20,000 nucleotides of DNA from an uncultured virus (IMG/VR IMGVR_UViG_2548877036_000001) (Duplodnaviria; Heunggongvirae; Uroviricota; Caudoviricetes), in IMG/VR virus record IMGVR_UViG_2548877036_000001; one strand, given 5' to 3'. The notes beneath the pieces were generated by a model that was not told where the DNA came from, ran no database searches, and worked only from the letters and a program-made list of their open reading frames with translations. Made by a program: the position numbers and the translations under genes. Shown here one piece after another: positions 524 through 19,819 of the stretch; positions within the stretch are counted from its first letter, which is position 1, and the number at the start of each line of letters is the position of its first letter.

Positions 524-1750
524 TCAAGGAGATGGCATTCTTACTCGTCGGGCGGCGTTAATCACCGCGGTACGTACGGCGCTGTCTGTGGGGTTTCCGG
601 CCCGTATCAGGGCGGTGAGCGCCCGCTCGTACTCTTCTCCCGGGTCAGAGGCTACTTCCTTTGACAAGATGGCGATCGTAGCGTTGAGGGTTAGCACATC
701 TAGCGATTGACCGAAGCTCCACATGCTGTCAGCCCACGGTTCCCCGTAGACATCTGCCAGCTGCTTGTTGATGTCCACTAATGCGTGGCGCAGAGACAGT
801 TCATGTGCTTTATCGACAGTCAACGTGGTTTCGTCTTCGGGCCAATTGAAGAAAGCTTCGAACGCTGGCTTACCCCGATAGCGTCCGCGACCTCCGTCGG
901 CATTGGCCACGAGGTATTGGGTGGCGCGGTGGCGATGTTCGTGCGGGAAGGCGTACACCCTGAGGTCTTGAACGATCCAGCGTCCCCAAAGTTCGCGGCT
1001 TACGGCGTTGGCGATGCGCTGCGCGGTCTCTGGCTTGAGTGCTGACAAGGCACGATCGGCTTCAGTGAATAAGCCGACGCCGCCGGCAGTTGATGAACGC
1101 AGCTTCCGCGGCGGGCGAATAAGGCGGCCGCGCTCATCCGGTGTGGGACTGCTGCCGTACTTAGCCACAATCCGCGCCAGCTGGCCTCGCGCGTGATCTT
1201 CCCCCAAGACCGGCCTGGACCAACGCGGATGTTCCATCTCAAGCCGCACCCTCAGATAGGCAGGTGAATACTCGCATAGTTCAAGCAATGCCGGGGACGC
1301 GGGGTCGCGCTCCTCTAAAATCTCGCGTATCTGAGATGGTATGTCAGAGAACAAGATTGAACCGCCATTGGCGAGTAGAGCCGCGTACTGCCGGATGAGG
1401 TGAGCTGCCCGGGCTTCGACGAGACCGTCAGGGAGCTGGCGCGGCAGCCGTTCGCCGTAAATTCCGCGGGCGAGCACCGCCTCACGGCTCGTACGGTCGC
1501 TATTTCCGCGGAATTTCTCGATCAGGCCCATACGATCACCCCTTCTCTCCTGAACCGTCAGCTGGAGACCAAGTGCGTCGGCGATGTCAGCGACGATTCC
1601 TATTTCGCCGCGTGGATGCCCGGCCTCGATCTTGGAGATGGACTGGCGCGTAACTCCAGACCGCTCCGCCAGATCGACAAGGCTCCAGTTCTTCGCCGTT
1701 CGCGCCGCCTCCAAGGCGCGTCCGATGCGCCACACATCATCCTTGGTCAC
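524..1750 (-). CDS. XRE/HTH_3 (HipB-like) DNA-binding domain fused to a ~335-aa domain of unknown function
   Basis: N-terminal IGRALEAARTAKNWSLVDLAERSGVTRQSISKIEAG...IADALGL is a canonical XRE HTH. Long open frame; promoter directly upstream. Confidence 0.85.
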   Translation of the reverse strand: MTKDDVWRIGRALEAARTAKNWSLVDLAERSGVTRQSISKIEAGHPRGEIGIVADIADALGLQLTVQERRGDRMGLIEKFRGNSDRTSREAVLARGIYGERLPRQLPDGLVEARAAHLIRQYAALLANGGSILFSDIPSQIREILEERDPASPALLELCEYSPAYLRVRLEMEHPRWSRPVLGEDHARGQLARIVAKYGSSPTPDERGRLIRPPRKLRSSTAGGVGLFTEADRALSALKPETAQRIANAVSRELWGRWIVQDLRVYAFPHEHRHRATQYLVANADGGRGRYRGKPAFEAFFNWPEDETTLTVDKAHELSLRHALVDINKQLADVYGEPWADSMWSFGQSLDVLTLNATIAILSKEVASDPGEEYERALTALIRAGNPTDSAVRTAVINAARRVRMPSP

Positions 1751-1798
1751 TTGAGGTAGCGTACGCGCACTGATTCCAAACGGTCAACGTACGTTAAC
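1751..1798 (-). promoter_or_regulatory. SigA-type leaderless promoter of the XRE gene with an overlapping palindromic operator
   Basis: Minus strand TTGACC (1787-1782), 18 nt, TACGCT (1763-1758), 7 nt, GTG start 1750. Palindrome GTcAACGTACGTTaAC (1783-1798) overlaps the -35. Confidence 0.65.
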
Positions 1799-1940
1799 GC
1801 GGCGCGGTCGGGCCACGGCTAAAGCGGTAGCTAGGACCTGCCTGTATCTGACACCAACTGCGGGTCGCTCACACACCGCTACACATCACGACGGTCAGAC
1901 CGGGCGCGACTACCAATTCTTCAGGGGCTGGTAAACCTAC

Positions 1941-2975
1941 TCAGTAACGAGGCATCTCGTCACCGAGTGAGTTCTTCTCCCCAGGATCGTCCGAGGTGTT
2001 CAGGAAGTCCTCTGATGTGTCGATCAGGTTGTCGAGATATTGGCGAGCGTCGATGACCGCCTGATGCTTCTGAAAGTCCGGCTCATGCGCCCACGGAGCG
2101 TGCACGGCTCCCTGCCATGCGTCGGCGGCGCGGTACGCCTCGATCGCAGCTAGCACTTCATGTGGACTGCGGCTGGGATACTCGTCGGTCACCAGCCTGC
2201 ATTCGCCGCCGCTCTCAAATGCCTTGGCGAGCTTCTGCTCCGGTGTTTCCGATTCCAACTTCCGCGCAATCGCGAACACCGGATACGGCCTTCCACCCCA
2301 CACCCCCTTTAACGAGTGGGTTCCGAGGAGATATGCCTTGCGTTCGCGCTTGTCCTTGCCGTCGTTGTAGTGCTTGAACAGAAGGTGGGCCACTTCGACG
2401 GTCAGGACGAAATAGCCACGCGCGGCGAACTTCAAGACGCGAAACCCCGTGTCGATGCTCGGCCCGACAAAGTCCATCGCGAAATTGACCACGAACTTGC
2501 CCTCGGTGTCGGCCTTGTTCAACATCGTCTCGTTGATCTGCTCTGGATCGAGCTGTGATCCGCTCTCGGAAATCTGCACTGTGCGAGGGATCGCGACGCG
2601 CCGATCGGGTGCCGGAACCGTTGCCAGGAAGGCCCCGCCTTTGAGGGTCATCGGCGTCTTGACGAGTAGATGTTGGGTCTCGAACTCAAGCATGGTGTCA
2701 GTCCATGCGTCGACGGCGTCGCTGCAGTCCTTCTCCGACTTGATCCGGATCGAGAAGATCAGCTCGTCACCGATGGCCTTCCACAGCGAGAGCCGGCCCT
2801 GCAAATCCGGATACAACTCGACGATCCTTGCCGCCAGCAGCGACGGGAACTCTGTATAGAAGGCCAGGAACGTCGCAACCCACCTGGCCTCGCTCTTCTG
2901 CTTGAACTGCGTGGAGTTCTGTAGGTCGCAAGAGAGAAAGAGAATGGAACCGTCTTCGTTGAGACCAGCGGCCAT
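1941..2975 (-). CDS. Divergent class III nucleotidyl (adenylate/guanylate) cyclase-fold protein
   Basis: Motifs in the expected order: LFLSCDLQNST (metal Asp17), WKAIGDELIF (Lys66, metal Asp70), DFVGPSIDTGFR (equivalent to DxxGxxVNxAxR), LKGV. Confidence 0.7.
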   Translation of the reverse strand: MAAGLNEDGSILFLSCDLQNSTQFKQKSEARWVATFLAFYTEFPSLLAARIVELYPDLQGRLSLWKAIGDELIFSIRIKSEKDCSDAVDAWTDTMLEFETQHLLVKTPMTLKGGAFLATVPAPDRRVAIPRTVQISESGSQLDPEQINETMLNKADTEGKFVVNFAMDFVGPSIDTGFRVLKFAARGYFVLTVEVAHLLFKHYNDGKDKRERKAYLLGTHSLKGVWGGRPYPVFAIARKLESETPEQKLAKAFESGGECRLVTDEYPSRSPHEVLAAIEAYRAADAWQGAVHAPWAHEPDFQKHQAVIDARQYLDNLIDTSEDFLNTSDDPGEKNSLGDEMPRY

Positions 2976-3496
2976 CAGGTGAGCAGGCCGAGAAATTCGG
3001 CACGGACCCTCGCCGCTGGAACAGACACCTCGAAGTGCCGGGCGACTGTCGCCAAGTTGTGGTTCGACTCGGCGAACACCTTGCTGAACGCGGGCGCGGG
3101 CATCAAGAGATTCGATGCGAATACATTCGCTTGCGTCTCAGCGGGATTGCGGCCCAGCCGGGTAAACCTGGAGACCCGCTCACCGGTGAGATGTGTGTCG
3201 GGGGCCCGGTTGTGCAGGAAGTAGTGCCCGAGCTCATGGGCGATCGTGAATCTGTCGCGCAGCCGTGAGGTGTGGGTAGGGATGATCACGGTGAAGTCGC
3301 GGGGGCTGCGAATTTCGAGCGACTCGACACGTTCGTCAACAACGATGTCGCCGCCGAGCTTGTTCAGCAGAGCATGCACGTCAACGTGGCCGCTCTCATC
3401 GATGACCTCGTGCTGGCACGCGATTTCCTCGGCATACGCCGCGATCGCGGAGTACGACAACTTCGACAGCGGTGCCTGAACCGCAGCTTGAGTCAT
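2975..3496 (-). CDS. ImmA/IrrE family (Peptidase M78/DUF955) zinc metallopeptidase
   Basis: RDRFTIAHELGHYFLH (HEXXH), ETQANVFASNLLMP, ARHFEVS. Start moved from 3520 to ATG 3496 because GGAGGTGA is properly spaced there. Stop overlaps the cyclase ATG (TGATG). Confidence 0.9.
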   Translation of the reverse strand: MTQAAVQAPLSKLSYSAIAAYAEEIACQHEVIDESGHVDVHALLNKLGGDIVVDERVESLEIRSPRDFTVIIPTHTSRLRDRFTIAHELGHYFLHNRAPDTHLTGERVSRFTRLGRNPAETQANVFASNLLMPAPAFSKVFAESNHNLATVARHFEVSVPAARVRAEFLGLLT

Positions 3497-3815
3497 CACG
3501 CTCACCTCCACCCCAATCATCCTCCAACTAGTGGGGATCGGAAACCTCCCCAGGCTGCGAGCTACATCGCACAGCTTGCCTTGCCGTGACCTGGCGAAGG
3601 GGGTGATTCACCAGATTCAACCGCAGCGTAGCGCCCAGGATCTGCCGGCGACTCTCGACACTCTGCACACCGCTGTTTGTGCACAATCGGTGAGAATCAC
3701 CCAAAATCCGGGGACGTGACATGAATTCGCGACTTTCATCATTTCCGCAGGTCAGGCGGTTTCGCGTCAACGAGGTCCGACGCACGAACACGCGTGCAGC
3801 TACCTGAAATGTGCG

Positions 3816-4718: not shown

Positions 4719-6062
4719 ATGCCACAAACGACAGCCAGCGGCTTCGATATGTCTTTCCTCGATAGTGGGCAAACGGCCGGCGTGTTTTCGGACATCGCCT
4801 CCGCGACAGACACGTGGAACACACAGTTGGGTGCGCACATCGACGAGCTCGCACAACTCTCCGACAGCGAGACAATCTCGGCGGCGATCAACCAACTAGG
4901 CCGGGCCCGTGAAGGACTCAGCGCCGGCGGTTACGCCCTGGCGGCCAGCAGCGCGGCGCTGGCCGCACAGAAGAGCGCCGATGATCAGTGGCGCAGGGCT
5001 CCACAGGACGACGAGCTCGAGGAAGCACGCCGCGCCGTCACCGAAGCCAGCAAGGAGCTGGCGGCGGCCGCCGACAGCCAAGCGGCAATCGCGGCCGAAG
5101 CCAAACTGAAAGCCGCCATCGAGCATTCGCGTGACTTGAATGAGCGCCGCCGGCAAGCCGACAAGGATTTCGTCGATGCCTCCGGAAAGGTTCAAGAGCG
5201 TCTCCGCGAGTTCAACCCTGAGGAGGGGAAGAACAAGAAACAGAAGGACAAGAAGGACAACGAAAACGGTCGAGCGGTGCCGGGCAAGAAGCCTGAGCTT
5301 AAGGCCAGCGCATCTCCTGCTCCGTCGAATCATCGCGCCCCTGCTGCGCCCGGAGCGCCAGTTACCGCTCCATCCTCGCCGGCCGCACCGTCTGGATCCC
5401 CCAGCTCCGGGTCGCCCGCGTCAGACGCCGCACTGACCGCGCTTCTGCAGCGCACCGGTCAGCTTCCGCCTGCCCAACCGGCTCAGCAGCAGCAGCCGCC
5501 GCAGCAACAGCCTCAAACTGCACCGGCCGCCGCGGCTGGACCGTCGTCAGCGCCTTCACCGGTCAGCAACCCAAAGAGCAAGGTAGAAGGTGCGATCAAC
5601 ACCGACGACATTCCGGGCATCGCCGCTGCACCTGTCCCCATGGCCATGGGTCCTGTGGCCGGCCCTGCGCCCGCCGCAGCGGCATCGGCCGCGCCGGCAC
5701 CTGCGACCAGCGGTAACTCCGCAGCGGACCTGTCCACCGACAGCAATGTCAGTGGCCGTCCCGACGCCCAGCGTGGCGCCTTCAATCAGCCCCACACGTC
5801 TGCCTCGGGAGCCACCGGTACCGCAACCGGCGCAGGAACCGGTACCAGCACCGGCCTCAACCAGAAAGGCATGCAGGCCGCGGGCATGCCCGCCACAGGT
5901 ATGCCCATGGCCGGCATGCCGATGGCACCCGGGGCCGCTGGCAGCCGTGGCGGAACGGTCAAGCCGGTACAAGCGCACCAGGACAGCAACGTCTATGAAG
6001 AGGGCGTTGTACGCGGCGGCACTATCGCGCAGAACCGCCCCGACTTCACTGAAAAGGGCTAG
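4719..6062 (+). CDS. Ala/Pro/Gln-rich protein with a helical N-terminus, PPE/EspB-like putative ESX substrate
   Basis: ~165-aa amphipathic helical N-terminus (…WRRAPQDDELEEARRAV…), long low-complexity linker, and a GMPMAGMPMAPGAAGSRGG tail typical of PPE/Esp proteins. No PPE or WxG motif. Confidence 0.6.
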   Translation: MPQTTASGFDMSFLDSGQTAGVFSDIASATDTWNTQLGAHIDELAQLSDSETISAAINQLGRAREGLSAGGYALAASSAALAAQKSADDQWRRAPQDDELEEARRAVTEASKELAAAADSQAAIAAEAKLKAAIEHSRDLNERRRQADKDFVDASGKVQERLREFNPEEGKNKKQKDKKDNENGRAVPGKKPELKASASPAPSNHRAPAAPGAPVTAPSSPAAPSGSPSSGSPASDAALTALLQRTGQLPPAQPAQQQQPPQQQPQTAPAAAAGPSSAPSPVSNPKSKVEGAINTDDIPGIAAAPVPMAMGPVAGPAPAAAASAAPAPATSGNSAADLSTDSNVSGRPDAQRGAFNQPHTSASGATGTATGAGTGTSTGLNQKGMQAAGMPATGMPMAGMPMAPGAAGSRGGTVKPVQAHQDSNVYEEGVVRGGTIAQNRPDFTEKG

Positions 6063-6175
6063 CCGGTCAACGCACGAGGCTGAACTGATGTGCGGGCGGC
6101 ATCTCACTCCAGGTCCTCGGTCTGCAACCCAAGCATCCCGGGGGCTTGATTTAGCGCTCGCCTGGCTCGGACTGG

Positions 6176-6805
6176 TCAGTGCGTGTAGGCGTCGAAAACC
6201 CCGCGGAGACGTTGAAGCGCTTCCTCCCTCTCGCCGGCCTCCTCATACCAGCCGTTCGCAACCTGTTCGGCGATTACAGCCTCAGGAGTGAACTCCCTCC
6301 CGAACAGGCAGTCGCCCACCGCGTAGTCGAACCCCACATCGCGGCTAAAGCCGGTGCCCCCGAAGAGGGCGATGCCGTTCCTCTCGCAGTAGGTCAACAG
6401 GCCGTCCGCTATGTGCCAGGAGGCGCCGTCGAACCAGAAAACACCACTGGCGTGCGGGAGTGTCTTGCCAGTGGACGTCTCCGTCACGTTGTGAAATTCG
6501 TAACTCTCCGGTCTGTTCGCCACGAGTGCCACCAACTCTGCGGGCACACCTCTGAACACTTCGAGCTGTGCGGCGTAGTCGCCGTCGTAGAAGTTCAGGA
6601 CGCTCTCGTGCTCATAGGTCAGCAAGAGAACCTTGCCGTCGTCAGCGAAGAACCAGCCCGACGACTGTCCACCGCCGTCGTTCCACGCGTACCGCGTGCC
6701 GCCCGGGACCTCGACCGATTCGATGTCATTCCATTGGTCGACGATCGCCGCCCGGCGACGCACCTCGTCGATCGGTGTCTGCTTCAGATCCTCCCATGCG
6801 CTCAT
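6176..6805 (-). CDS. Hypothetical acidic, aromatic-rich protein (possible immunity-type protein)
   Basis: Globular-looking ORF with WNDGGGQ, YEHES, FRGVP and SGVFWFDG motifs. Start likely ATG 6805 (leaderless, TGa-CAGGAT 7 nt upstream) rather than TTG 6841. Confidence 0.75.
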   Translation of the reverse strand: MSAWEDLKQTPIDEVRRRAAIVDQWNDIESVEVPGGTRYAWNDGGGQSSGWFFADDGKVLLLTYEHESVLNFYDGDYAAQLEVFRGVPAELVALVANRPESYEFHNVTETSTGKTLPHASGVFWFDGASWHIADGLLTYCERNGIALFGGTGFSRDVGFDYAVGDCLFGREFTPEAVIAEQVANGWYEEAGEREEALQRLRGVFDAYTH

Positions 6806-6885
6806 GCGCCGAATCCTGTCACAGGACAACAGATGCAACATTCATCAACCGACTCTACGTAAGGGCACACCACTTTCAGGGCACC

Positions 6886-6927
6886 AAAAAGAACCACCCC
6901 GCAGCGCGGGAGCGCATACGGGGCGGT
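6886..6927 (-). terminator. Intrinsic terminator ending the minus-strand ESX-like operon
   Basis: Minus strand ACCGCCCCGTA-t-GCGC-tccc-GCGC-TGCGGGGTGGT followed by TCTTTTT, ~30 nt after the stop at 6959. Confidence 0.8.
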
Positions 6928-14956: not shown

Positions 14957-15495
14957 TTGTACTTCTCCATTCTCGGGTTGTTGTTGCGAATAACGTGGTC
15001 GTACAACGCCATCGCCGCTTGGGACAGTTTGGGTGCGGCGTCGCCCTCATAGGCTTCCGAGGCTTGCCGGATCGAGACGAGCATCGGATCAGGAGCGGTA
15101 CCGTAGTCAGGCTTTTCCATCTCCCCTCTGACCTTGATGACCGGATACCGTGTGATCCACGATCCGCGTTCATCGATGTACTCAATGGGGTCGAATTCCG
15201 CTGCGGCATCATGGTGGTCGGCCGGATCGTGTTCATGAAACCACCAGCCGCCGGTCGGGCAATCCTGCCAGAAGACGACGCCTGCGCACTCGACACAGAT
15301 GGACTCATAGACGACGTGCTGGCGTGAAGCAGAACGTCGGGATTCTCTCAGCTCTCCCTCTAGCTTCTTGAGCTCGGCGATAAGGTCGGGCATCCATTGG
15401 CGGAAAGACGAAAGTACCTGCGCTGTTTCGCGATTTAGGGCATATGTTGGGGCAGCCGCCAACGCGCGTTCGGCTCGTTCGATCAATTCACTCAT
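14947..15495 (-). CDS. Phage-like hypothetical protein (coiled coil plus CxxC…C…H cluster)
   Basis: Start ATG 15495 overlapping the helicase stop. MSELIERAERALAA…CVEC…DCPTGGWWFHEHDPADHHD. Confidence 0.7.
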   Translation of the reverse strand: MSELIERAERALAAAPTYALNRETAQVLSSFRQWMPDLIAELKKLEGELRESRRSASRQHVVYESICVECAGVVFWQDCPTGGWWFHEHDPADHHDAAAEFDPIEYIDERGSWITRYPVIKVRGEMEKPDYGTAPDPMLVSIRQASEAYEGDAAPKLSQAAMALYDHVIRNNNPRMEKYKWT

Positions 15496-18400
15496 CGCTG
15501 CACCTCTTCCATCCTGGAGACCCATTCGATGGGCAGTCCACTCTTAGCGGCAGCGCACTTGACCGAATACCCTTGATCCAGAAGTGCTTTGGCCCAAGTC
15601 TCGCCTTCAGGTGTCACCGGTGGCGTGCTGACCATTCGCGCGCTTCGCCGTGTGGGCGATTTCTTCGGACCGGGCTTCTTCGGCGGTGGCACCGGAGGCG
15701 GAGTCAGGTCGCCATCCAGCGACTCGAACCAGACACGCACGAGTTTGGCTTGGGCGATGGTTACCGGCCTCCCGCTCACTGGCGTGTTGGCGGTGCTGCT
15801 GTATCCGAGTGCAGCCGTCAGCTGCTTAGGTGTCCAACCTGCCGCCATGACCTTATCGAGCAGCGCCCAGGTGGGCTCTGGATCATCGACTTGTGCGTTG
15901 TAATCACGTATCCCGAAGCGACCTCGGTCCCGTTGCACCGTGCGTACCGCACGCACGTCATCCGCAGTGAGGTCAAGCAGTATGCGCCTGTGCAGCGCGC
16001 TGCACCTGGGCTCCTCTGCTCGCTTGACGAGCAGCGACACTAGACCTCGTGAGACACACGCGGCAGCCGCGATCGCGCCGATCGTGAAGGTGGCATCGGA
16101 ACGGTCCTTGCTCGTCTCCATCGCTAGGAGGCCTTGTAGATGTTCACGAACGTCCTGCGCGGGCACCCACCCGTCCCGGTAAACGGCTCGCCGCTCAGCG
16201 GCGGCGCGACGCATGTAGCTGCGGTTCTCAGTGACGCAGACAACGCAGCGGCATCCCTGGTGGTATCCGCGAGTGCTGTGATCTGTAACCCCTGACTTCG
16301 GACCGGTAATCATGTCCGTGCCACCCTGGCCCGGTGAAGTCCAGGTCCATCCGGTGAAGCGTTCGATGGTGCTGTCTTGTGGTCGAACGTCTCCGCGATT
16401 GCGCCGGGACCGCGTAGCCGCACACCACTGGTACAGCTCGAATCGGTGACCTTCGACGTACTCGACTGTTCCAACCGGCATCCGCGCCAACGTTCCGTGC
16501 CGGGCGATGTACTGCAGACACGCTAGTTTCGCTATTTGCCAGCGGGTTTCCGCTGGTTTCCACAGGAATCGACGCTCACCCTTGTGGCCGGTCGGGGTCG
16601 ACGCCAACAGCACCGCTTCGAGGATTGGTGGCAGTGTTCCGTAGATCTTGCGGCGCCGAACACTTCCGAGCCAGGCGTCGAGGTCGACATCGTCTTCGAC
16701 GTGTCCGTCGGGGACGTCTGCGTGACCTTCCCAAGCCACGAAGGACCGAAACGCCGCCACGCCGGCTTGATCGGCCTCTGACAACGGATACCAATCCCAA
16801 CCCGGCATCTGCAGAAGTGCCTCGGCGATCCAACTGTCCAGTTCATTGTCCCAGAACTTGCATAGCTGCGCTGCCACCCACAACCGAAGTGGGCGGTTCA
16901 GTCCGTCAACGTATCCCGCGAAAATGGACTCACCGGGTGCCGTGTCGTCGAGGTTTCCCCGATTGACGCAAATAGCTCGGAGCTGGTCCAGGGTTCGCTC
17001 GTCGGACGCCGCTCGCGCGTCCCACCGCCAGCCGTTGACCGAATCGAGCCGCTTGCGGCGCTCCTCGTCGAGGAGACCGTCCCGGAACAGAATGCGCTGC
17101 AGCGTCATCCAATGTCCGAGATCGCTAGACAAGGTGGTGATCCGCGCGGCTGATCCCAACCGTTCGGCCTCTTCGCACAGCCGTTCAAAGTTGCGCTCCC
17201 ACACCGAAGACGTGCGTTGCAGCAGGCGCGTCATTATCCTTCCGGGCTGGTCGCCGGTGACCTCCAACCAGTCCAGAGCAGTTGGGTCGATGCAGCCGTC
17301 GACACCCGTACCGCGTGCTCTGTCAATGTCGAATCCAACACGCGAGTCATGCGCACGTAGCCCATGCAGCACTCGCCAGACGTGGGTGTATGACGACGTG
17401 GACAGCTGGTCCTGATCATCTGCGTCGGGATCCAGCACGAGTGGAATGACGATGGTGCCGTGGGATTTTCCGGGATGGCGGCGAAGTGCCCGGCCGATAG
17501 CCTGGATGATTCCCACCTGGCTGGTACGTGGGTCGGCGAAGACCACGGCGTCGACCGCGGGCACGTCAATACCCTCACGCAGACACTGCGACGAGGCAAC
17601 CACCGTGACTCGGTCTGATGGTGAATTGGCGAGCCTGTCAAGGATCTTCACACGCTCCGAGTCACGCATCGAACCATCAACTGCGAGTCCATAGATGGGT
17701 GTGCCGTCCACGTCGCCGAGTGCACTGACGCGTCGTGCGAATGCCTGTGCGGAATCGACCCGATTGTGGAAACTCAGGATGCGCCTCACGCCGTATCGGC
17801 GCACTACATCGACCAGCGCGGCCAGCCCGGCCCGTTCTCCAGTTGCTTGCCCGGCGGGTTCGGTTGTGGTCGTCACCAGCACGCGATAATCGGACAGCAA
17901 TCCAGCGCTCACAGCTTCCCCGACGTTCAGGGTGTACGCGATCTGTCCGAACAGCGCGGTGTCATCCATAGATCGGGCAACCGCACTCGCGCCGGACAGG
18001 TCGTCGATGGTCTCGGCCCTGCCACGGCCTTTCAACACAATCGGCGTCGCCGTCGCGAATACCCGGCGTCGCGCTGGCACACCACGCGGATCGAGCACCG
18101 GAAGAAAGGTCGCGTTAGTGCGTCCAGCCAGGTGGTGGGCCTCGTCAGCGAGCAACAGGTCCAGGGGCCGCCGGCTGCGCGTCAAACCGACGGCGTCAGC
18201 CACCGCCTGGGAGGAGTGGTAGGTGGAGACCACCAACGACAGGGACATGCTGGATTCGTCAGCACGGTCTAGGAATGCGGCGACCACCTCAGCTCGGGTT
18301 GTTACGTTGCCGTCTTGATCGTGTTGGCCATGGAACGGATCGACGCCGTCAACGCCGATTTCCGCGCGCCCAGCGTCCGTTGTCGGATCTGAACACACGG

Positions 18401-18668
18401 CAAGCACGCGCATGCTGGGGATGACGCGACGCCATTCGGCAATTGTCTGCGCCACTAGCGCAATACTGGGCGTGAACACCGCAACTGTGCGCGCACCGAT
18501 TTCGAGAGCGTGCCACGGTCCGATGAGGGTCTTTCCTGTACCGCAGGCCATCCGCATCTGCGCTCGCTCCCCTGCGTTGGCTAGCGCGTCGAGGGCGGCT
18601 CGCTGGTGTGGGCGAGGTTGCAGCGCAGCAGCACTGATCGGCGCATGGTCTTGCAACGATGCGGTCAT
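15492..18668 (-). CDS. SF2 DEAH helicase (ResIII-like + Helicase_C) with helicase-associated repeats and a C-terminal Zn-finger/HTH region
   Basis: LQPRPHQ (Q motif), MACGTGKT, DEAHH, ATATP, LREGIDVP, QAIGRALR. Repeated L..W...QR…L…GW.W units. Confidence 0.9.
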   Translation of the reverse strand: MTASLQDHAPISAAALQPRPHQRAALDALANAGERAQMRMACGTGKTLIGPWHALEIGARTVAVFTPSIALVAQTIAEWRRVIPSMRVLAVCSDPTTDAGRAEIGVDGVDPFHGQHDQDGNVTTRAEVVAAFLDRADESSMSLSLVVSTYHSSQAVADAVGLTRSRRPLDLLLADEAHHLAGRTNATFLPVLDPRGVPARRRVFATATPIVLKGRGRAETIDDLSGASAVARSMDDTALFGQIAYTLNVGEAVSAGLLSDYRVLVTTTTEPAGQATGERAGLAALVDVVRRYGVRRILSFHNRVDSAQAFARRVSALGDVDGTPIYGLAVDGSMRDSERVKILDRLANSPSDRVTVVASSQCLREGIDVPAVDAVVFADPRTSQVGIIQAIGRALRRHPGKSHGTIVIPLVLDPDADDQDQLSTSSYTHVWRVLHGLRAHDSRVGFDIDRARGTGVDGCIDPTALDWLEVTGDQPGRIMTRLLQRTSSVWERNFERLCEEAERLGSAARITTLSSDLGHWMTLQRILFRDGLLDEERRKRLDSVNGWRWDARAASDERTLDQLRAICVNRGNLDDTAPGESIFAGYVDGLNRPLRLWVAAQLCKFWDNELDSWIAEALLQMPGWDWYPLSEADQAGVAAFRSFVAWEGHADVPDGHVEDDVDLDAWLGSVRRRKIYGTLPPILEAVLLASTPTGHKGERRFLWKPAETRWQIAKLACLQYIARHGTLARMPVGTVEYVEGHRFELYQWCAATRSRRNRGDVRPQDSTIERFTGWTWTSPGQGGTDMITGPKSGVTDHSTRGYHQGCRCVVCVTENRSYMRRAAAERRAVYRDGWVPAQDVREHLQGLLAMETSKDRSDATFTIGAIAAAACVSRGLVSLLVKRAEEPRCSALHRRILLDLTADDVRAVRTVQRDRGRFGIRDYNAQVDDPEPTWALLDKVMAAGWTPKQLTAALGYSSTANTPVSGRPVTIAQAKLVRVWFESLDGDLTPPPVPPPKKPGPKKSPTRRSARMVSTPPVTPEGETWAKALLDQGYSVKCAAAKSGLPIEWVSRMEEVQR

Positions 18669-19558
18669 GCCGCCACCTGCTGTTCGCCACGCAGTTTGGC
18701 CATTGCCCTCTCAACAAGGTCACGAACTTTGACGACCGGAACCCGGTACTCGTCGGCGACTTCGTTCACCGACCGCGGCACCCCGGTAGCCAATCCGAAC
18801 ACATCGGAGATGACTCGCCTCTCGCGGTCAGAGAGCAGCGCCAGCAGGTCCGAAAGCTGCTGCGAGGCCATGGCGTGAGCGTCATCTCGGTCGCCGCTGT
18901 CCTGTCCTGCCACGACGTCGAGGAGGCTGGACGATTCATCTCGACCGCCCTCGAACAGTGGGGCGTCCAACGAGACCGCTCGCGACATCATGGAGTGCAT
19001 CTGCACGACACCCATCACGCTGACACCCATTGCAGCGGCCAGCTCTGCGTCGGTCGGGGCCCTACCGAGGTCGGTCTCCAGTTGATAACGCATCGCGAGC
19101 ATCCCTCTGCATCGTTCTTGGTCGGCGGAAGACAATGCAGCCGGGGTCGCCCCGGTGATCGCACGCTGCTGACGGAGCCGCACCCAATACAGCGCGTACG
19201 TGGAAAACTTGAATCCCTGTGTGTAATCGAACTTCTGGACAGCACGAATGATGCCGAGCATCCCTTCAGCGGTGAGGTCTTCCACCGTCAGCAGCGCGCC
19301 GGAATCCATCCCGGCTGCGCGCTTGCGTGCCCACCACGCGGAAAGCCGAATGTTCGCTGTCACGAAATGCTCAAACGCCGCTCGACCATCCGCGGCCACC
19401 AGTCGCAACTGTGCCGGGGTGTAGCGCGAGCCCCCTTTGCCAAGTAGGAACTGTGCATACAGGCCAGCCTCGATCCGCTTGGCAAGCTCCACCTCTTGCT
19501 CTGCCGTCAACAAGTCAGGCAAGTCCTCGGGGATCTCTACCTGCTTCACCAGGTGCAT
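18665..19558 (-). CDS. Sigma-70 family RNA polymerase sigma factor, SigA/SigB-derived, divergent
   Basis: Region 1.2 LLTAEQEVELAKRIEAGLYA, region 2 ANIRL…EGMLGIIRAVQKFDYTQGFKFSTYA, region 3 LGRAPTDAELA…SLDAP, region 4 LSDRERRVI…FGL. Start likely ATG 19558. Confidence 0.9.
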   Translation of the reverse strand: MHLVKQVEIPEDLPDLLTAEQEVELAKRIEAGLYAQFLLGKGGSRYTPAQLRLVAADGRAAFEHFVTANIRLSAWWARKRAAGMDSGALLTVEDLTAEGMLGIIRAVQKFDYTQGFKFSTYALYWVRLRQQRAITGATPAALSSADQERCRGMLAMRYQLETDLGRAPTDAELAAAMGVSVMGVVQMHSMMSRAVSLDAPLFEGGRDESSSLLDVVAGQDSGDRDDAHAMASQQLSDLLALLSDRERRVISDVFGLATGVPRSVNEVADEYRVPVVKVRDLVERAMAKLRGEQQVAA

Positions 19559-19565
19559 AGCACGC

Positions 19566-19819
19566 TCACCTGTCCTCGAGGCGTGACACGATCGCATGCG
19601 GACCGTAGATGACGTACCCCTCCCGGACACCCCCGGTGGCGGGATCGTCTACGCGGCAATAGAACCTGAGCAGTTCCTGTCCGAACCGGTCTTGATGTGG
19701 TTCAGCGTCACGTAGTACCTCTGTGGTGAACACGCGAGATTCGTCTTCGCCCTGGGGCCGCGCCCAATGCTCGAAGAAGTCTCCCGCCCGAAGCTGATCT
19801 GCGCGGATCTCCGAAGTGC

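Follow-up and report, generated by a model that had tools for sequence, protein, structure and literature searches.

The window analysed here, a stretch of 20,000 nucleotides recorded as an uncultured virus of the Caudoviricetes (IMG/VR IMGVR_UViG_2548877036_000001), carries on its minus strand a gene for a small zinc peptidase of the M78 family, which is followed by a gene for a 344 amino acid (aa) protein with the predicted fold of a class III nucleotidyl cyclase. The two genes overlap, and this pairing of peptidase and cyclase is kept in related loci from several phyla. The genes and their junction are placed as follows:

2975..3520, minus strand: gene for the M78 zinc peptidase, of a minimal ImmA/CapP type, an open reading frame (ORF) of 181 aa from its first ATG (3520)
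1941..2975, minus strand: gene for the cyclase-fold protein, an ORF of 344 aa
2973..2977, minus strand: TGATG junction, with the peptidase stop TGA at 2977..2975 and the cyclase start ATG at 2975..2973

Both ORFs lie where an earlier reading of the letters without database searches (the sequence-only reading) had put them, and the coordinate 3496 at which it ended the peptidase gene is a second in-frame ATG, giving a protein of 173 aa. Judged from the sequence around the two codons, ATG 3496, with a GGAGG 8 nt upstream, is more likely to be the start than ATG 3520, which directly abuts a GGAGG. The overlap of stop and start that had been claimed is also borne out, with one base (2975) common to both and the junction reading ...ACC TGA TGG CC...

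Predicted fold and conserved residues of the two proteins

The 344 aa protein had zero matches in Pfam, NCBIfam and PADLOC at E<=1, and the Pfam class III cyclase profile PF00211 did not match it; PADLOC models, including PycC, likewise gave no match at E<=0.01 to the cyclase part of 10 family members. An AlphaFold2 model was obtained from a 38-member alignment, with a predicted local distance difference test score (pLDDT) of 86.6 and a predicted template modelling score (pTM) of 0.86. Using Foldseek, this model grouped with class III adenylyl and guanylyl cyclases, with 165 matches at E<=0.001; CyaC 1wc4 was matched with probability 1.00 and E 1.9e-8, and CyaB 3r5g with a TM-score of 0.76. 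Identity to canonical cyclases in the structural alignments was 10-19%. The class III cyclase fold, or cyclase homology domain (CHD), is confirmed at the level of the predicted model over residues 4-239, in agreement with the sequence-only reading, which had seen class III motifs in this protein, and D17 and D70 lie in the motifs it had named.

Residue conservation was taken from two alignments, one of 38 close family sequences (A1) and one of 37 distant sequences at 19-31% identity (A3); some of the motif patterns used in a scan of 171 family members were too strict. The features of the protein are as follows, the tail being supported by A1 and by an alignment of the extension (A4):

2259..2966, minus strand: cyclase homology domain, residues 4-239, from the structural matches
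2925..2927, minus strand: D17 at the end of strand beta1, in the motif LFLSCDLxxST (invariant in A1, at least 90% conserved in A3)
2766..2780, minus strand: W-K66-x-x-G69-D70-E hairpin (K66, G69 and D70 invariant in A1; G, D and E invariant in A3)
2439..2474, minus strand: helix motif D168-x-x-G-P-S-I-D175-x-G-F-R179, from the alignment columns
2307..2309, minus strand: K223 in the motif LKGVW (at least 90% conserved in A1; K and G invariant in A3)
1944..2258, minus strand: C-terminal extension, residues 240-344, beyond all cyclase matches (the model range ends near residues 239-266)
1944..2021, minus strand: acidic tail DTSEDFLNTSDDPGEKNSLGDEMPRY, closing with an acidic-x-x-Pro motif, from columns of A1 and A4

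In the model, residues 63-78 form a strand-turn-strand, and both D17 and D70 fall within the secondary-structure elements where they would be expected; going by the motif pattern of class III enzymes, we take these two residues to be the predicted metal-binding Asp pair. K66 is presumably the Lys at the base-specifying position and K223 presumably corresponds to the Lys that binds the triphosphate in class III cyclases, while D175 is taken to occupy the position of their transition-state Asn, which belongs to the canonical motif N-x-x-x-R of helix alpha4. In the helix motif, D168, G171, P172, S173, D175, G177, F178 and R179 are invariant in A1, and D, G, F and R are invariant in A3. The residues at the catalytic positions are invariant or nearly so in the 38 close sequences, and invariant or at least 90% conserved in the 37 distant ones. 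Residues 121-165 form a family-specific insert with invariant P121, P123, D124 and N148. From the conserved positions we infer enzymatic activity, and the downstream protein most likely makes a cyclic nucleotide from a nucleoside triphosphate (NTP). A protein atlas was also consulted, in which the 30 nearest clusters had no common Pfam family; the nearest named ones, PF00211 (0.91) and DUF2652 (0.90), were treated as leads only.

The C-terminal extension with an acidic tail, which the sequence-only reading had suggested as a possible cleavable regulatory part, amounts to about 105 aa beyond residue 239. In the full model it consists of helices packed on the core followed by a disordered tail, with a pLDDT of 85-94 for residues 271-320 and 53-62 for residues 321-344. 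When the extension was folded alone (alignment A4, 114 aa), the pLDDT was 66.4 and the pTM 0.37, a model too poor for a fold search, and so no claim is made on the fold of the extension. P342 is at least 90% conserved in A1 and A4. In Mycobacterium-type copies the tail ends in ...D-[DE]-[LM]-P-x-x, and in most other actinobacterial copies it ends in ...L-[ED]-[ED]-x-[AP]-P-L-G, sometimes with extra residues after it. The median net charge of the last 40 aa was -6 in 53 homologues linked to a peptidase versus -3 in 26 unlinked homologues (Mann-Whitney p 8e-5, on sequences that are not phylogenetically independent and with relatedness uncorrected). A count of the tail motif by regular expression (21/53 linked versus 6/26 unlinked) was too crude and was not used.

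The upstream protein matches Pfam Peptidase_M78 (PF06114, 1.1e-18) over residues 77-174. Its best PADLOC profile is capP (1.1e-25), of which only positions 8-149 of 242 are covered, and no HTH (helix-turn-helix) or GAF part was found in it by Pfam or in the coverage of the capP profile. It is also matched by 15 PADLOC RmrA models (3.8e-17 to 5.2e-07), over the protease part only, and there is a weak partial match, far under the cut-off, to the NCBIfam spr1629 repressor/antitoxin model. A profile built from 35 partner peptidases (alignment A2) gave CapP 7t5t (1.3e-16) and IrrE 3dte (4.1e-08) as the nearest solved proteins. The residues of the predicted zinc site are as follows:

3224..3238, minus strand: HELGH zinc-binding and catalytic motif (H95, E96, H99), read from the sequence
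3137..3139, minus strand: E128, the predicted third zinc ligand, in the motif E..AN.FA..LLMP (an invariant column in A2)

H99 is invariant and H95 and E96 are at least 90% conserved in the 35 aligned partner peptidases.

Conservation of the pairing and its surroundings

A word-indexed search gave 235 relatives of the 344 aa protein, with no Pfam domain on record among the 120 listed, and two homologues among the matches listed carry a UniRef name with 'Guanylate c...'. An exhaustive phmmer search of 1.84 billion cluster representatives gave 1,467 at E<=0.001, 624 at 1e-10 and 46 at 1e-30. Loci were fetched from 80 genome contigs, 11 IMG/VR viral contigs and, for a distant branch of the family, 80 metagenome contigs, and 79, 10 and 70 of these were assessable, respectively. 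Genome locus L048 has too little upstream DNA, one viral locus is cut at the contig end, and in nine of the ten unassessable metagenome loci the peptidase gene is cut off by the edge of the contig.

A peptidase homologue was located directly upstream of the cyclase gene and on the same strand in 53 of the 79 genome loci, and a profile search returned the same 53. It was also directly upstream in all 10 viral loci and in all 70 metagenome loci, the latter representing 44 clusters at 80% identity. With all collections pooled, the pairing is present in 133 of 159 assessable related loci, and it is confirmed as a family trait, far beyond chance. The 53 linked genome loci belong to Actinomycetota, Alpha- and Gammaproteobacteria, Verrucomicrobiota and Victivallales, and thus the linkage that had been seen in the window, and had not been recognised by the sequence-only reading as a known pairing, is conserved across phyla. 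Of the outcomes that the sequence-only reading had named as refuting it, neither the absence of a cyclase fold on structural search nor a lack of linkage to the peptidase in the homologues was observed. In 51 of the 53 genome pairs the starts could be assigned by a heuristic; 33 of these pairs overlap, and 46 either overlap or are at most 12 nt apart. The partner peptidases are bare M78 domains of 163-193 aa, and HExxH is kept in 52 of the 53 at genome loci and in all 10 viral copies. When the window genes were compared with those of four relatives, the cyclase had a ratio of nonsynonymous to synonymous substitution rates (dN/dS) of 0.12-0.16 and the peptidase one of 0.18-0.24. dS was close to saturation; by these ratios, purifying selection acts on each of the two genes.

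Some of the loci have a second and longer M78 paralogue (191-235 aa) directly upstream of the pair; there is none in the window. It was observed at these positions:

L002:2605-3177; L081:9811-10386 (M. chubuense plasmid); L093:345-1049; L098:3615-4277; L099:1311-2015; L101:308-1003; L106:1479-2141: second M78 paralogue

When all ORFs within 5 kb that reach 70 aa or more were clustered, no third conserved gene emerged in the linked loci, which share only the two genes. Among ORFs down to 25 aa in the 800 bp flanking each side, none was conserved, and at most 3 loci shared any one of them; no recurrent HTH family was found among the neighbours by ORF clustering, by Pfam on the immediate neighbours or by the small-ORF search. 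Since no third gene, small ORF or HTH substrate is conserved, the cyclase is the only constant candidate partner of the peptidase.

These results bear on the possibility that the peptidase is an ordinary anti-repressor of the ImmA type, cutting the product of an XRE gene that follows on the minus strand, and that the cyclase is unrelated cargo or is regulated transcriptionally as in CapH/CapP operons. The order of ORFs on this strand is peptidase, cyclase, a gap of 190 bp, and then:

524..1750, minus strand: XRE HTH gene of 408 aa, outside the conserved module (Pfam HTH_3, 9.3e-11, residues 13-65)

The closeness of this gene favours such an anti-repressor, as do the HTH or CI-type genes that adjoin the pair in L011 and L089, and the best profile of the peptidase is that of CapP, which cuts an HTH repressor according to passages of the CapP preprint (bioRxiv 10.1101/2022.04.27.489752). 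However, the XRE gene has zero homologues across the 80 related genome loci, no HTH family recurs beside the pair, and the overlap of peptidase and cyclase genes is kept where there is no HTH gene nearby, so that we regard an anti-repressor role as very unlikely. The XRE gene was also considered as a third component of the module, and was rejected as none of these 80 loci holds a homologue. The sequence-only reading had described the peptidase as having neither XRE nor GAF, which holds for the protein itself, as indicated by its coverage of the capP profile, and not for its surroundings, with an XRE-type gene downstream on the same strand. Beyond its N-terminal HTH, the XRE-gene product has about 340 aa without a Pfam match.

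For the window's branch, Pfam was run on 101 ORFs immediately next to the pair, taken from the 434 called at the 53 linked genome loci. Among them are PE-PPE genes, integrases (L023, L031), a phage capsid gene and GmrSD_C (L027), a SIR2-like gene (L017), DruA (which adjoins the pair in L046), WYL and CHAT (L047) and a reverse transcriptase (RVT, L009). On viral contigs, the pair is found among genes for tail fibre, holin, endolysin, integrase, excisionase, terminase and CI-type repressor. Sites such as these, near the prophage ends or the lysis cassette, are usual ones for accessory genes. In Mycolicibacterium chubuense NBB4, the pair is located on plasmid pMYCCH.02 at 75% DNA identity, where its neighbours are a second ImmA/IrrE gene, RES-Xre, PIN, TcmP, an MPN protein and IS110. 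The module is rare: with a profile, the gene was detected in 3 of 301 genomes sampled from the family of one carrier. The pair is therefore a mobile accessory module, carried on plasmids and prophages and beside integrases, and the mobile, defence-type context that had been looked for in its neighbourhood is present. In an Arthrobacter genome, a Crp-type regulator (cNMP_binding and HTH_Crp_2) lies directly downstream of the pair (L030:7125-8021), a single case that could be due to chance.

The distant branch recovered from metagenomes differs in that its cyclases carry a C-terminal Nudix-like domain, for example at residues 295-411 of P0258 and 336-425 of P0260, and is referred to here as the Nudix-fused or sister branch. 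Its surroundings were assessed from 64 immediate neighbours of 44 representative loci, out of 166 called ORFs, and include integrases and recombinases, S subunits of restriction-modification systems and a KAP NTPase. A PycTM match adjoins the pair in 17 of the 44 representatives, in 15 of them above the Pfam gathering score, and these genes are mostly directly downstream on the same strand. Two of these effector genes match PADLOC PycTM (2e-27, 5e-28) as well as CBASS 2TM effector models (1e-35, 9e-39), and the cyclases beside those two genes have no match to the PycC model. In the window's branch, PycTM (PF18967) adjoins the pair in only 2 of 53 loci, L068 and L075, and a jackhmmer search with the PycTM-like ORFs of these two gave only self matches. 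No PycTM or PycTIR effector was found adjacent to the pair in the window among its ORFs by Pfam or PADLOC. The Nudix-like end (P0258, P0260, L093:1653-3080) is matched by a single-gene candidate of PADLOC, PDC-S07, at values as low as 8.3e-12, and PDC-S07 may be a fragment or relative of the peptidase-cyclase module.

The remainder of the window has a plasmid-like appearance, with an NlpC/P60 gene (9720..10670), a helicase with HA domains and a sigma factor, and looks like a mycobacterial plasmid or conjugative element. Two of these genes overlap:

15492..18668, minus strand: superfamily 2 (SF2) helicase of 1,058 aa with three HA domains, overlapping the start of the sigma-70 gene
18665..19630, minus strand: sigma-70 family gene, its start overlapped by the helicase gene

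The helicase part of the former matches PADLOC models of type IIG and type I restriction enzymes and PbeA models. RNA-seq reads, from runs labelled as the species of the best DNA match, map only below about position 523 and from about 3709 on, and in run X22 five reads have a loose end at 3709; read numbers are small. Four RNA runs were covered, and the stretch 524-3700 is absent from all of them. Because the reads skip about 524..3709, a cassette-like insertion or deletion is suggested, the strain used for RNA-seq seeming to be without the HTH, cyclase and peptidase genes.

Proposed protease control and alternative roles of the pair

With moderate confidence, we interpret the pair as a self-contained mobile module for protease-controlled nucleotide signalling related to Pycsar, with a role in defence or addiction. 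The upstream peptidase is the obligate, co-translated partner of the cyclase and most likely controls it after translation, by binding or by clipping, such that nucleotide synthesis would be released only on a cue, for example phage infection or DNA damage. In the sister branch, the signal would be read by the adjacent PycTM/2TM membrane effector. The window carries a minimal form without a dedicated effector gene, for which the output would have to come from the flood of nucleotide or the drain on NTP as such, from a receptor whose gene lies elsewhere, or from the peptidase. Two possibilities are close to each other here, namely that the released cyclase is harmful in its own right or that there is such a distant receptor.

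The sister branch also bears on a reversed order of action, in which the cyclase is the sensor and its nucleotide switches on the peptidase as an effector that cuts host or phage proteins, the two-gene form then being complete. A peptidase effector of this kind would explain why no other effector is seen in 51 of the 53 loci of the window's branch, and the catalytic residues of the peptidase are kept in nearly all copies. Nevertheless, a bare M78 domain of this size has no room for a nucleotide-binding domain, and the candidate ligand-binding GAF of CapP, which the available passages of the preprint give as a separate part (bioRxiv 10.1101/2022.04.27.489752), is missing here. The sister branch has both a peptidase and a 2TM membrane effector, so that the peptidase cannot be the only output there and would act upstream of the signal, as a sensor or brake; activation of the peptidase by the cyclase is accordingly unlikely.

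A further possibility, one that overlaps with protease-controlled signalling and differs in lacking a signal-to-effector step, is a toxin-antitoxin pair similar to those of RosmerTA. Here, the cyclase-fold enzyme would be a toxin, acting by a drain of ATP or NTP or by a flood of cyclic nucleotide, and the ImmA-type peptidase would be the antitoxin by binding or constant cleavage; the pair would stabilise plasmids or prophages and may abort phage infection. The RmrA models that match the protease part point in this direction, and ImmA-protease antitoxins are described in passages of the RosmerTA paper as being paired with many unrelated toxins (PMC10440598). The organisation into two genes with the antitoxin first and an overlapping stop and start is consistent with it, as are the presence of the pair in prophages and on a plasmid among other toxin-antitoxin pairs, and the lack of an effector gene in the same 51 of 53 loci. 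The one copy with a degenerate HExxH that is described below is tolerated, which fits neutralisation by binding. On the other hand, the peptidase is without the N-terminal HTH that is given as frequent for RmrA in those passages (PMC10440598), the cyclase matches no PADLOC model and hence no RmrT model, the separate membrane effector in the sister branch points to signalling, and no class III cyclase toxin was found in a literature search. A toxin-antitoxin role is thus a possible but doubtful explanation; if it is correct, that search gave no earlier example of such a system in which the toxin has a class III cyclase fold.

Several observations weigh against protease-controlled, Pycsar-related signalling. 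When sequences of the PDB were searched with the family profile (38 members), 0 matches were obtained at E<=10, and because the cyclase matches neither these sequences nor any PycC, Pfam or NCBIfam model, the case for its kinship to Pycsar depends on the fold and on the effector genes that adjoin the pair in another branch. In place of the transition-state Asn there is an Asp that is invariant in A1 and A3, with the Arg (R179) kept, and no Asn variant of the DxxGPSIDxGFR motif was seen among the 171 family members scanned; as this position is an invariant Asp, the chemistry may differ from that of class III cyclases. In the window's branch, 51 of 53 loci have no effector among the immediate neighbours by Pfam. 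About half of the Pfam-matched immediate neighbours at genome loci are housekeeping genes (rpoC, L7/L12, nusG, PNPase, PEPCK), and no recognised defence system was found near the pair in the window, PADLOC matches among 13 neighbouring ORFs being limited to the helicase and the sigma factor. The peptidase in a Dokdonella genome (L046:5378-5938) is without HExxH, having AQMLGH versus AHELGH elsewhere, and the pair is still kept. The acidic tail motif is missing from the four Nudix-fused sequences that were read and is conserved only within the window's branch; since it is absent from those sequences, the tail cannot be a universal contact or substrate or explain the partnership across the family, and it may instead be a regulatory handle of the window's branch.

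Another such observation is that 26 unlinked genome loci, all of one clade, keep a cyclase-like gene without the peptidase. This clade (within L044-L080) consists of Phenylobacterium, other Caulobacteraceae records and unclassified alphaproteobacterial metagenome-assembled genomes, and has a common synteny and its own conserved C-terminal domain (...NYxxxTPLFL...WAPPYI...); in L051 the gene (5746-6921) is chromosomal, located between pdxJ/acpS and spoT. A conserved chromosomal place of this kind would fit housekeeping second-messenger signalling, or a protein with the fold but not the activity of a cyclase (a different nucleotidyl transferase or a pseudo-enzyme) and the protease as a chaperone-like partner, and both the replacement of the canonical Asn by Asp and the Crp-type cNMP-binding regulator beside the pair in L030 are in line with this. 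The patchy occurrence (3/301 genomes) and the carriage on phages and plasmids argue against it, and it is precisely in this chromosomal clade that the peptidase is missing; a housekeeping or non-cyclase role is quite unlikely for the pair.

Within the reading of the pair as a protease-controlled signalling module, a more specific version can be put forward tentatively. The M78 peptidase may be the sensor of phage or DNA damage in a new Pycsar-like lineage, licensing the cyclase directly by proteolysis or release, and in the two-gene form of actinobacterial plasmids and prophages the unleashed cyclase may on its own bring about killing or arrest, without a separate effector. If this is true, cyclic-nucleotide immunity would have a post-translational, protease-gated trigger, as opposed to the transcriptional switch of CapH/CapP. 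We know of no account that settles how Pycsar-type cyclases stay silent and are switched on in infection. In the family described here, a candidate regulator comes built in, since across several phyla the gene for a minimal protease is joined to that of the cyclase. If the protease gates the cyclase, nucleotide immunity would be shown to have a new logic of control, and a family that has no Pfam, NCBIfam or PADLOC model would receive a function and a name.

Comparison with known systems

In a literature search, no description was found of a pairing between an M78 peptidase and a class III cyclase, the search covering text and not the figures of papers or bioRxiv supplements, and this is consistent with the sequence-only reading, to which the pairing was unfamiliar. 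Pycsar, Pucsar and the 'Clade F' Pycsar resemble the pair in having a class III cyclase-fold enzyme on mobile elements, and in an adjacent gene matching PycTM and 2TM effector models, which is found in the Nudix-fused branch and in 2 of 53 loci of the window's branch. The window cyclase differs in that it is recognised by neither PycC nor any other PADLOC or Pfam model, in having Asp in place of the transition-state Asn, in its constant M78 partner and in the lack of an effector in the window form. An M78 partner is not mentioned in the text passages of the Pucsar preprint (10.64898/2026.08.12.744502) or of the Clade F paper (PMC13069673), figures and supplements lying outside these passages. 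According to the former passages, a Pycsar-2 subclade has a C-terminal AGS-C domain and transmembrane (TM) effectors (10.64898/2026.08.12.744502). It is possible that this subclade overlaps with the Nudix-fused branch, and Figure 1A or Table S1 of the same preprint may show the peptidase-cyclase lineage.

The CapH/CapP system, together with IrrE/DdrO and ImmA/ImmR, is similar in its protease, with capP as the best profile, CapP 7t5t as the closest solved protein and a zinc site of HExxH and Glu, and CapH/CapP of CBASS is similar also in that a peptidase lies within a nucleotide-signalling operon. CapP has three domains, namely a peptidase, an HTH-like linker and a GAF, in the passages seen of its preprint (bioRxiv 10.1101/2022.04.27.489752), and CapP 7t5t has 291 aa, whereas the window peptidase, at 173-181 aa, is a peptidase domain only. 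A conserved HTH substrate gene was not found for the window family in the neighbour searches described above, and the peptidase gene overlaps that of the cyclase, whereas the CapP type lies upstream of the repressed operon.

RosmerTA, too, is a mobile module of two genes with an ImmA-type protease domain at its centre, and occurs on phages and plasmids of actinobacteria. Passages of the paper describe ImmA-protease antitoxins as a known hub that is paired with many unrelated toxins in RosmerTA systems, one of these systems being on a Gordonia phage, and RmrA proteins as frequently having an N-terminal HTH (PMC10440598); in its text, 'cyclase' occurs once, only in the spelled-out name of GAF. 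The window peptidase lacks the HTH, and in RmrA profiles of 357-400 positions only about positions 194-294 are matched (for example 194-294 of 380), and its partner is a cyclase-fold enzyme rather than a membrane-depolarising or other listed RmrT.

The window pair therefore departs in a defining feature from each of Pycsar, CapH/CapP and RosmerTA. Compared with the canonical class III cyclases (CyaB of P. aeruginosa, CyaC of Spirulina, Rv1900c and Ma1120), the downstream protein has the replacement of Asn by Asp, low identity in structural alignments, no match to a sequence profile, the insert at residues 121-165 and no sensory or membrane domain, but it shares with them the predicted fold, both metal Asp positions, the Lys/Asp base-specifying pair, the Arg and the triphosphate-binding Lys positions.

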